From the IMG/VR virus record IMGVR_UViG_2690316267_000001: a stretch of 8,586 nt of DNA. One strand, given 5' to 3'. The notes below the pieces were generated by a model. The model was not told the DNA's origin. It saw only the letters and a program-made list of their open reading frames with translations, and did not search any database. The position numbers were made by a program, and so were the translations under genes. Shown here piece by piece: positions 477 to 832 of the stretch; the first letter of the stretch is position 1; each line of letters opens with the position of its first letter. The DNA comes from a virus. Taxonomy: Monodnaviria; Loebvirae; Hofneiviricota; Faserviricetes; Tubulavirales; Inoviridae.

Positions 477-725
477 TCACCACCACCATGCAAACGGCTT
501 GTTACTGACAGGAAATGCGATACCGTCAGCATCACGACCACGCAAGACCTGATTAAGAAGCTTTCTGACTTCACGGCGCTCTGGCCGGGTCATCATCATA
601 TTGCGATACCAGGACGGTGATTTATCAAACCACCTGGAACAACTGGTAAAATGTGAACTAACACGACGGTAAGACTTCATGCGACCACTGGGGAGTCGAT
701 CGCGCACCCTGCTTTTTACAGACAT
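477..725 (-). CDS. hypothetical small basic protein (82 aa, Arg/Trp-rich), function unknown; could be spurious
   Basis: ORF with ATG at 725-723 preceded by GAGG (735-732) and a 6-nt T-run spacer; start region sits inside a 21-bp palindrome. No recognisable family; lies where Ff phages have non-coding intergenic DNA. Confidence 0.3.
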   Translation of the reverse strand: MSVKSRVRDRLPSGRMKSYRRVSSHFTSCSRWFDKSPSWYRNMMMTRPERREVRKLLNQVLRGRDADGIAFPVSNKPFAWWW

Positions 726-734
726 AAAAAACCT

Positions 735-755
735 CTAAGTAATTGAATTACCTAG
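735..755. promoter_or_regulatory. 21-bp near-perfect palindrome CTAAGTAATTGAATTACCTAG (9 of 10 arm positions pair), candidate operator or hairpin tip
   Basis: Direct inspection; centred on G745; overlaps the Shine-Dalgarno of ORF 477..725; flanked by further imperfect pairing (AGACAT 722-727 with ATGTCT 759-764). Confidence 0.4.
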
Positions 756-832
756 AAGATGTCTTTCTGTTCATATCCTGTCAGTTTTAAGGCCATATAG
801 AGGCTCCGTGGTGAAACGTAAAATCCGGCTCT

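Follow-up and report, generated by a model that had tools for sequence, protein, structure and literature searches.

A filamentous prophage of Escherichia coli carries, just downstream of its secretin gene, a small selected gene (ORF82) whose ribosome-binding site is predicted to lie within a conserved RNA hairpin, and the 5' arm of that hairpin consists mostly of the last codons of a short, conserved leader ORF. We propose, with a probability of roughly 0.7, that translation of the leader melts the hairpin and thereby licenses translation of ORF82, in a form of coupling or attenuation of the cat/erm type. We infer that the leader is translated, that its translation is coupled to that of ORF82, and that ribosomes pause on it. 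ORF82 itself is already known, being annotated as a hypothetical protein and noted in the UPphi and YpfPhi literature. The selection acting on it, the wider protein family to which it belongs and the module of leader and hairpin, recorded in neither RefSeq nor Rfam, are new. The class of mechanism is known, whereas this family of leader, hairpin and ORF82 is not. Coordinates below refer to the window, that is, the whole stretch of 8,586 nucleotides that was analyzed. Its relevant features are the following:

477-725, minus strand: ORF82, encoding a basic protein of 82 amino acids (from the ORF listing; ATG start, TGA stop at 477-479).
720-764, minus strand: mRNA hairpin of 45 nt, predicted to sequester the Shine-Dalgarno sequence and AUG of ORF82 (from RNA folding, strand asymmetry and covariation).
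732-735, minus strand: Shine-Dalgarno sequence GAGG of ORF82, 6 nt upstream of the AUG (723-725).
752-796, minus strand: leader ORF of 14 codons plus UAG, MALKLTGYEQKDIF*, a conserved frame that has no RefSeq annotation.
804-807, minus strand: GGAG, a possible Shine-Dalgarno sequence of the leader, 7 nt upstream of its ATG (from the sequence).
876-2234, minus strand: gene IV (secretin), the gene upstream of the leader and ORF82 (from the ORF listing; the PGAP start is the equivalent of window position 2141).
832-879, minus strand: GC-rich hairpin overlapping the stop codon of gene IV (876-878), given as context only.
254-367, minus strand: remnant of a second, YPO2281-like accessory gene, of which only the two ends are left here.

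The window is a UPphi-type filamentous (inovirus) prophage of E. coli. All its phage genes lie on the minus strand, in the order gene II (5660-6712), V, VIII, III, VI, I and IV, followed by the ORF82 region. By sequence comparison, the morphogenesis genes resemble those of I2-2 and IKe (the block has ~67% DNA identity to Lineavirus I2-2 and IKe), and the replication module resembles that of YpfPhi and CUS-1. Positions 106-900 have a 100% identical copy in E. coli NZ_CP144928, within a pair of tandem prophages located beside dif/hipBA and bounded by dif and a dif-like attP. No dif or attP site was found within the window at up to three mismatches, and an IS1 stands where the intact relative has attP. 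A block ~90% shared with CUS/Ypf-type phages extends from the attP side to position 778, so that its boundary falls inside the leader. The secretin, zot, pVI and pIII of the CUS/Ypf-type phages belong to different families from those of the window, as judged by annotations and lengths. The second accessory gene downstream of ORF82 is intact in CUS/Ypf-type relatives. In two Yersinia pestis loci (L007 and L008), a homolog 82% identical to ORF82 lies directly downstream of the secretin gene. ORF82 is probably the counterpart of YPO2280a of YpfPhi and of one of the h1/h2 genes of UPphi: the homologous protein occupies the same place, after gene IV and before the dif-like attP, and the name YPO2280a for the Y. 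pestis homolog was inferred from gene order in PMC4266046. That paper states that YPO2280a and YPO2281, next to attR, "have no predictable functions." The UPphi h1/h2 and YpfPhi YPO2280a/YPO2281 genes are given as genes of unknown function, and the leader ORF and the hairpin are not described there (PMC4266046, PMC7307601).

With its 14 Arg and 5 Trp residues and a net charge of about +13 (counted by eye from the translation), the ORF82 product is hydrophilic and strongly basic; PGAP names it hypothetical protein WP_071792182.1. Its length of 82 codons is unremarkable on its own, several spurious ORFs of similar size being present in the window, and the significance of ORF82 comes from its conservation rather than from its length. 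Our searches covered genomes, viral contigs and E. coli assemblies and yielded 40 loci, which comprise 28 distinct sequences at the DNA level. They belong to E. coli, Salmonella, Pantoea, Y. pestis (YpfPhi, 82% amino acid identity), Brenneria and Xenorhabdus, the most divergent being 61% identical. The length was fixed at 82 codons in all 40, without any indel or internal stop. Pairwise dN/dS ranged from 0.05 to 0.18, and variable codons were far more numerous at the third position (72 of 82) than at the first (44) or the second (38). Likewise, pN/pS was 0.26 in frame; four of the other frames gave 1.26-1.33, and the antisense frame whose wobble position coincides with that of ORF82 gave 0.38. 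From the fixed length, the dN/dS values and the codon-position pattern, we conclude on comparative evidence that ORF82 is a genuine protein-coding gene under purifying selection. About 10% of the members of the close family in databases are truncated or frameshifted, which indicates that the gene is dispensable in some prophages. These copies are in keeping with decaying prophages.

The hairpin at 720-764 combines two helices. In the inner one, 747-758 pairs with 732-743, two G.U pairs included, around a loop at 744-746; in the outer one, 759-764 pairs with 720-725 across an internal loop of six U residues (726-731). The GAGG of ORF82 pairs with CUUC, that is, the last base of the leader Ile codon plus the Phe codon, and the GACAU of the leader pairs with AUGUC, made up of the ORF82 start codon and positions 1 and 2 of the codon after it. 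Minus-strand RNA of 718-766 folds into a single hairpin of -16.4 kcal/mol (z = -5.2), a value matched by none of 200 shuffled sequences, versus -8.1 kcal/mol (z = -2.4) for the complementary strand. In ORF82 itself, the pairing probability is 0.97 both for the Shine-Dalgarno sequence and for the start codon. Across 89 distinct sequences, the median pairing probability of the Shine-Dalgarno region (-14 to -5) is 0.99, and the value exceeds 0.7 in 83% of them, compared with 0.35-0.78 for eight other starts in the window (seven genes plus the leader). On these folds, the hairpin is predicted to occlude the ribosome-binding site of ORF82.

The initial annotation had described an Arg/Trp-rich ORF of 82 residues with a reasonable ribosome-binding site and a 21-bp near-perfect palindrome at 735-755, and was right on both counts: the 21-mer differs from its own reverse complement at three positions and occurs once in the window. 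It had also drawn a longer hairpin, at about 716-770. The structure does extend beyond the palindromic core, to 720-764, close to that estimate. The Shine-Dalgarno sequence and the ATG are not inside the palindrome, where they had been placed; the former forms the base of the 3' arm, and the latter lies in the outer helix. The leader ORF was absent from that annotation; it provides the 5' arm, and the likely mechanism hinges on it.

Comparison among relatives shows that the hairpin is a conserved, strand-specific RNA structure. For the 26 enterobacterial variants, the folding energy was -9 to -17 kcal/mol on the sense strand versus -1 to -10 on the antisense strand, and 95.9% of the hairpin cells were paired in a MAFFT alignment. 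The two conserved G.U pairs correspond to A.C mismatches on the other strand. For the wider set, the alignment was made with a covariance model from the enterobacterial sequences and leans towards that model; in it, 92.7% of the cells were paired, 10 of the 11 inner-stem pairs had changes on both sides, and the covariation score was reached by none of 500 shuffles, with slid controls at 36-48% pairing. This leaning is mitigated by the MAFFT alignment and by alignment-free folds of single sequences, which gave a median of -15.8 kcal/mol and a median z of -4.4, with 95% of the sequences below -2. With numbering from the Asp codon, stem positions 9-13 accept GC, CG, UA and AU pairs interchangeably. 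The covariance models of Rfam 15 had no match in the window at E ≤ 1, nor did the element in 14 related loci match any at the gathering score.

The leader (ATG GCC TTA AAA CTG ACA GGA TAT GAA CAG AAA GAC ATC TTC TAG) contributes its Asp-Ile-Phe-stop codons (752-763) as most of the 5' arm of the hairpin. RefSeq annotates no feature at this place. An ATG precedes the stop by 13-14 codons in every one of the 26 distinct enterobacterial upstream regions, often as the sole start codon of an open frame of 15-22 codons. In the same set, seven of the last eight leader codons show almost exclusively synonymous changes at the third position (GGA/GGG, GAA/GAG, CAG/CAA, GAC/GAT, ATC/ATT), with a Gln-to-Met replacement in one locus (L044) as the exception; the codon before Asp varies freely (K/Q/Y/L). 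For the nine N-terminal codons, pN/pS was 0.68 in frame versus 1.0-1.15 in the other frames.

Thanks to the 89 distinct upstream regions, the leader could be followed well beyond enterobacteria. The codons GAY-ATH-TTY (D-I-F) are present in 73 of them, 23-32 nt before the main start (25-32 nt in all but one), and in these 73 leader, hairpin and ORF recur jointly, non-inovirus loci included. An in-frame ATG is found in 67 of the 73, with a Shine-Dalgarno-like 4-mer in front of it in 42 of those 67, and the length to Phe is most often 13 (36 leaders) or 14 amino acids (19 leaders). The consensus is M-x-[RK]-[IL]-[IL]-[GH]-Y-x-x-[LK]-D-I-F. Tyr occupies position -4 in 71 of 73 leaders, encoded by TAT in 46 and TAC in 25; the other conserved residues are G/H at -5, I/L at -6 and -7, and R/K at -8. 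The conservation of D-I-F could in part reflect pairing with the Shine-Dalgarno sequence alone. Taken as a whole, the conservation of the leader peptide goes well beyond the needs of RNA pairing. After Phe comes TAG in 41 leaders, TAA in 8 and CAG in 17, the other 7 having a different sense codon. A stop thus abuts Phe in 49 of 73 leaders, and it is UAG in 41 of the 49; in the remaining 24, the leader frame overlaps the main ORF, out of frame, for 38-242 nt. Exact D-I-F is absent from 16 of the 89 regions; variant endings such as D-I-L, D-F-F or D-V-L are present in most of these, and a comparable hairpin in most. We also considered a bypass or frameshift joining the leader to ORF82 and rejected it: a Shine-Dalgarno sequence and ATG proper to the main ORF are kept in 84 of the 89 regions, and a conserved matching landing codon was not found.

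We suggest that these elements would work as a self-contained cassette of four parts located 3' of gene IV, namely, the leader ORF, the hairpin, its 3' side bearing the Shine-Dalgarno sequence and AUG, and ORF82. The 5' arm is made by the last codons of the leader (GAC-AUC-UUC-UAG), and the 3' arm by the Shine-Dalgarno sequence of ORF82, with the AUG included in the outer helix. In the free mRNA, the ribosome-binding site of ORF82 would be base-paired and closed. A ribosome with the Phe codon of the leader in its P site would cover ~12-15 nt downstream, that is, the whole 5' arm and the loop. With the 5' arm so occupied, the Shine-Dalgarno sequence and AUG, 25-32 nt past the Phe codon, would become single-stranded and open to a second ribosome. 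Synthesis of ORF82 would then depend on translation of the leader, and its level would be set by the dwell time of the leader ribosome. The dwell time, in turn, may be set by the nascent peptide, which would make the ribosome pause or arrest at D-I-F, perhaps upon some signal. That the nascent peptide sets it is probable, as suggested by three features of the leaders: residues outside the paired region are conserved, such as the Tyr at -4 with either of its codons; the rare UAG stop is strongly preferred; and there is a subgroup without a stop after Phe, in which unimpeded ribosomes would cross the main start in the wrong frame. The further refinement that the dwell reflects a peptide-specific arrest is possible, with the odds somewhat against it.

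The initial annotation had left open two readings of this locus, a genuine, structurally regulated accessory gene or a packaging or morphogenetic hairpin with a fortuitous ORF. Our results uphold the former, given the purifying selection, the constant 82 codons in 40 loci and the covarying hairpin predicted to occlude the ribosome-binding site. Stops or frameshifts with conservation of the hairpin alone were not seen, the ORF being intact in every one of the 40 loci. We reject the latter reading, together with its variant of a replication-origin hairpin in single-stranded phage DNA, as having next to no chance of being correct. The hairpin does lie on the viral (+) strand just downstream of gene IV, where the packaging signal of Ff phages is found, and it folds with DNA parameters too. 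However, apart from the strong selection on ORF82, the same hairpin accompanies homologs of the ORF in contexts other than inoviruses, is stable on the mRNA-sense strand only and has arms that coincide exactly with the stop codon and the Shine-Dalgarno sequence; at 45 nt it is too short for an Ff-like signal, as well as AU-rich and reliant on G.U pairs. Moreover, the window has stronger GC-rich hairpins, at 832-879 and 391-434, that would suit such a signal better. The hairpin at 832-879 is also a better candidate than the one at 720-764 for the role of terminator.

The possibility that the palindrome is a double-stranded DNA operator for a dimeric regulator, either a phage repressor or the very basic ORF82 protein itself, is suggested by a near-perfect inverted repeat across the translation start region. 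It is highly improbable, since the half-sites are not conserved and the inner-stem bases vary freely while pairing is kept; most sequences carry G.U (G.T) at the same two positions, so that the DNA is consistently asymmetric; and the window has a single copy, with none in the gene II/repressor control region and no promoter-like site on the coding (minus) strand within 100-1000. We regard as quite improbable the idea that the hairpin ends the gene IV operon, acting chiefly as an intrinsic terminator or attenuator. A scan does flag 758-732, with a weak score and in this lineage, as a 12-bp stem with TTTTTT after it. The U-tract is nevertheless not conserved (for example, in L017, L019 and most metagenome loci), the stem has only three G-C pairs, and the U-tract is the spacer between the Shine-Dalgarno sequence and AUG of a conserved gene that needs transcription through it. 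Some weight, still well on the unlikely side, is due to autogenous repression, in which ORF82 would bind the hairpin of its own ribosome-binding site and the short ORF would be a micropeptide or irrelevant. The MS2 coat protein and T4 RegA are models for a protein that binds its own ribosome-binding-site hairpin; ORF82 is likewise small and very basic, its hairpin contains its Shine-Dalgarno sequence and AUG, and hairpin and protein always co-occur. This explanation could coexist with leader-gated translation, but it leaves unexplained the conservation of the leader peptide and the fixed register between D-I-F and the 5' arm. It also sits poorly with the high variability of the loop and stem sequences, which the most conserved protein motifs do not share, and with the 24 of 73 leaders that have no stop after Phe and hence define no micropeptide.

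Gating of ORF82 by its leader would place the cassette close to translational attenuation of the cat-86, cmlA and ermC type, which combines a leader peptide with a hairpin sequestering the Shine-Dalgarno sequence. The likeness includes a short ORF directly upstream of ORF82 (13-14 codons, in 67 of the 73 D-I-F regions), the pairing of the ORF82 Shine-Dalgarno sequence with a 5' arm made of leader codons (D-I-F-stop), and a conserved leader peptide on a specific codon of which a ribosome would unmask the ribosome-binding site. The differences are that ORF82 is not a resistance determinant, that its critical leader codons are the last before the stop or a sense codon, and that it is hosted by phages and mobile elements of Gram-negative bacteria, where stalling is putative. 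To our knowledge, a leader ending in Y-x3-D-I-F is like none of the known attenuator leaders. TnaC and other short arrest peptides offer a further parallel, in that conserved aromatic and Asp residues precede the termination site of the ORF82 leader and the conserved block abuts the stop in those 49 leaders, mostly UAG. The spacing of the conserved residues is not the same, however, and the putative output here is unmasking of a Shine-Dalgarno sequence, whereas TnaC acts through Rho-dependent control of transcription. In mok-hok, and in MS2 from coat to replicase and lysis, a downstream ribosome-binding site is closed by an upstream coding sequence and opened by its ribosomes, as proposed here; in contrast, the upstream frame of ORF82 has only 13-14 codons and its peptide is conserved. 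Unlike hok, ORF82 is no membrane toxin, and no promoter for an antisense RNA was detected. A type I toxin-antitoxin system of the hok/mok kind does not fit, given a hydrophilic product of about +13 and no promoter-like site found on the opposite strand near the leader.

Leader and hairpin form a candidate new leader-peptide riboregulator, with a peptide conserved across very distant hosts. A bolder and rather doubtful extension is that the leader of 13-14 residues represents a new class of arrest or pausing peptide, which would act at its last codon (with UAG or a sense codon in the A site), sense a small molecule or the state of translation or RF1, and switch on an ORF82-type protein. Were it true, the leader would be a sensor controlling a widespread small basic protein of mobile elements. 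Annotation easily misses small arrest and leader peptides, and the 73 distinct examples constitute a clean comparative data set.

The module is not confined to filamentous phages. Homologs with 30-40% identity are present in Pseudoalteromonas luteoviolacea, as part of an array of small ORFs, and in a 73-kb viral contig and many short metagenome contigs. They are also present in chromosomal metagenome contigs, where they lie between thiI/yajQ and a TonB-receptor gene. The same leader arrangement is found upstream in these non-inovirus loci, for example, MYKTFGYFEKDIF* and MTTRFEGYGDLDIF*. Over 90 loci, the neighboring genes are lineage-specific (secretin and zot in inoviruses, HigBA-like pairs in 10-11 metagenome loci), and no conserved neighbor was found beyond these. 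A search for direct repeats in the Pseudoalteromonas context gave no clear attC series that would indicate integron cassettes.

By profile search (E ≤ 1e-3), the wider family comprises 153 cluster representatives, mostly small (~50-135 amino acids), with the C-terminal motif P-x-W-[WY]...TRPxRR...G-x-D-x-D...FP...KP-x-x-[YW]-[YW]-[WY]. ORF82 has no Pfam match at E ≤ 10, and for ORF82 and its relatives there was no significant match in Pfam or NCBIfam, no relative in a sequence search of the PDB, and only weak matches of unknown function in PHROGs. PADLOC gave a single weak match of ORF82 to JetB/DUF2398 (E = 2.5e-4), which was absent in three relatives, and we did not retain this identity; a TPR match in the family searches was a false positive. 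AlphaFold2 modeled ORF82 with low confidence (pLDDT 50 with 12 sequences, 60 with 35), and Foldseek found no match in the PDB for this low-confidence model. An XafT-like Xer activation factor, considered for the dif-like attP nearby, was discarded, as the DUF3653 domain is absent and the module also occurs away from dif-integrating elements. Our guess is that ORF82 encodes a nucleic-acid-binding accessory ("moron") protein that is dose-sensitive and kept at a low dose; it is prompted by the extreme basicity, the stand-alone occurrence on diverse mobile elements and the apparently tight translational gating.

YpfPhi, CUS-1 and UPphi have links to fitness in Y. pestis and extra-intestinal E. coli, and the ORF82-type gene of these phages occupies the place that in CTXphi is taken by cholera toxin. 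What had been a hypothetical protein in their intergenic region becomes a demonstrably selected cassette that, from its sequence, is probably under tight regulation, in plague-associated YpfPhi as well as in CUS-1/UPphi of extra-intestinal pathogenic E. coli. The published view that UPphi and YpfPhi share genes II and V only is corrected accordingly. In a DNA search, a close homolog was absent from all deposited phage genomes; two plasmid records have one, a 248-kb Klebsiella plasmid and a 9.6-kb E. coli plasmid, the latter resembling the replicative form of a phage.

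Comparison of UPphi-type phages with the CUS-1/YpfPhi relatives (CUS/Ypf-type) places a recombination boundary inside the leader, the 14-codon ORF upstream of the gene for the 82-aa basic protein (ORF82), at its Gly-Tyr codons. The stretch between attP and mid-leader is ~90% identical in the two types (window 106-778 versus loci L004, L005, and L007, the last from Yersinia pestis), and their morphogenesis genes belong to different families. Among the leaders of 73 loci (e.g., L050-L130), the stop directly following the leader Phe is UAG in 41/49 and UGA in 0/49; in 17 further cases the codon is CAG, one base from UAG, and the frame continues into the main ORF.

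Other features of the window are as follows:

832-879, strong GC-rich hairpin overlapping the stop codon of gene IV
391-434, strong hairpin formed by AACCCCGGACAGCAACAAAAC and GTTTTGTCACTGACCGGAGTT
254-367, minus strand, remnant of a second accessory gene

The hairpin at 391-434 is apparently conserved among Yersinia, E. coli, and Brenneria relatives, as judged from ORF translations only. As a candidate terminator, packaging signal, or origin, either of these two hairpins is more plausible than the one at 720-764, which overlaps the end of the leader and the start of ORF82.

Only the coding ends of the second accessory gene are left in the window, N-terminal (ADSARQ..) and C-terminal (RVSGTDLPT). 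The gene is intact in CUS/Ypf-type relatives, encoding 65-82 aa (MTHQELKVMLLKDPAFRAAYEAESQ...), and it is probably YPO2281, one of the two YpfPhi genes next to attR. In some UPphi-type prophages, an 81-aa ORF is inserted between ORF82 and attP on the opposite strand (e.g., L003 3194-3439, MDLSYLAEMTPSEEAEF...); the window lacks this ORF.

A single IS1 copy is divided between the window ends (7921-8586 and 1-105), and the sequence is therefore circularly permuted or a single unit of a repeat. The NZ_CP144928 prophage (L001; 100% identity) has a 369-aa ORF plus the dif-like attP (~8722-9994 in L001), both of which are replaced by IS1 in the window. As a consequence, the window copy contains no Xer site at three or fewer mismatches to dif.

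The neighborhood of the module formed by leader, hairpin, and ORF82 varies among loci. A distant homolog (29% identity) on a caudovirus-like contig (L049 6840-7000) is preceded by a sequence that appears tRNA-like by eye and by a minimal start-stop ORF, ATG CGG TAG, inside a different hairpin, one covering part of the Shine-Dalgarno sequence. In L051, a cobalamin riboswitch (4414-4569; RF00174, 57.7 bits) lies directly downstream of the module, before a TonB-dependent receptor gene; it has no relation to the leader-hairpin-ORF82 arrangement. HigB/HigA-like toxin-antitoxin pairs, as read from the sequences, adjoin the module in 10-11 metagenome loci (L068, L090, L095, L098, L101, L103, L110, L111, L122, and L129), mostly immediately upstream, which suggests that these loci are cassette arrays or mobile islands.
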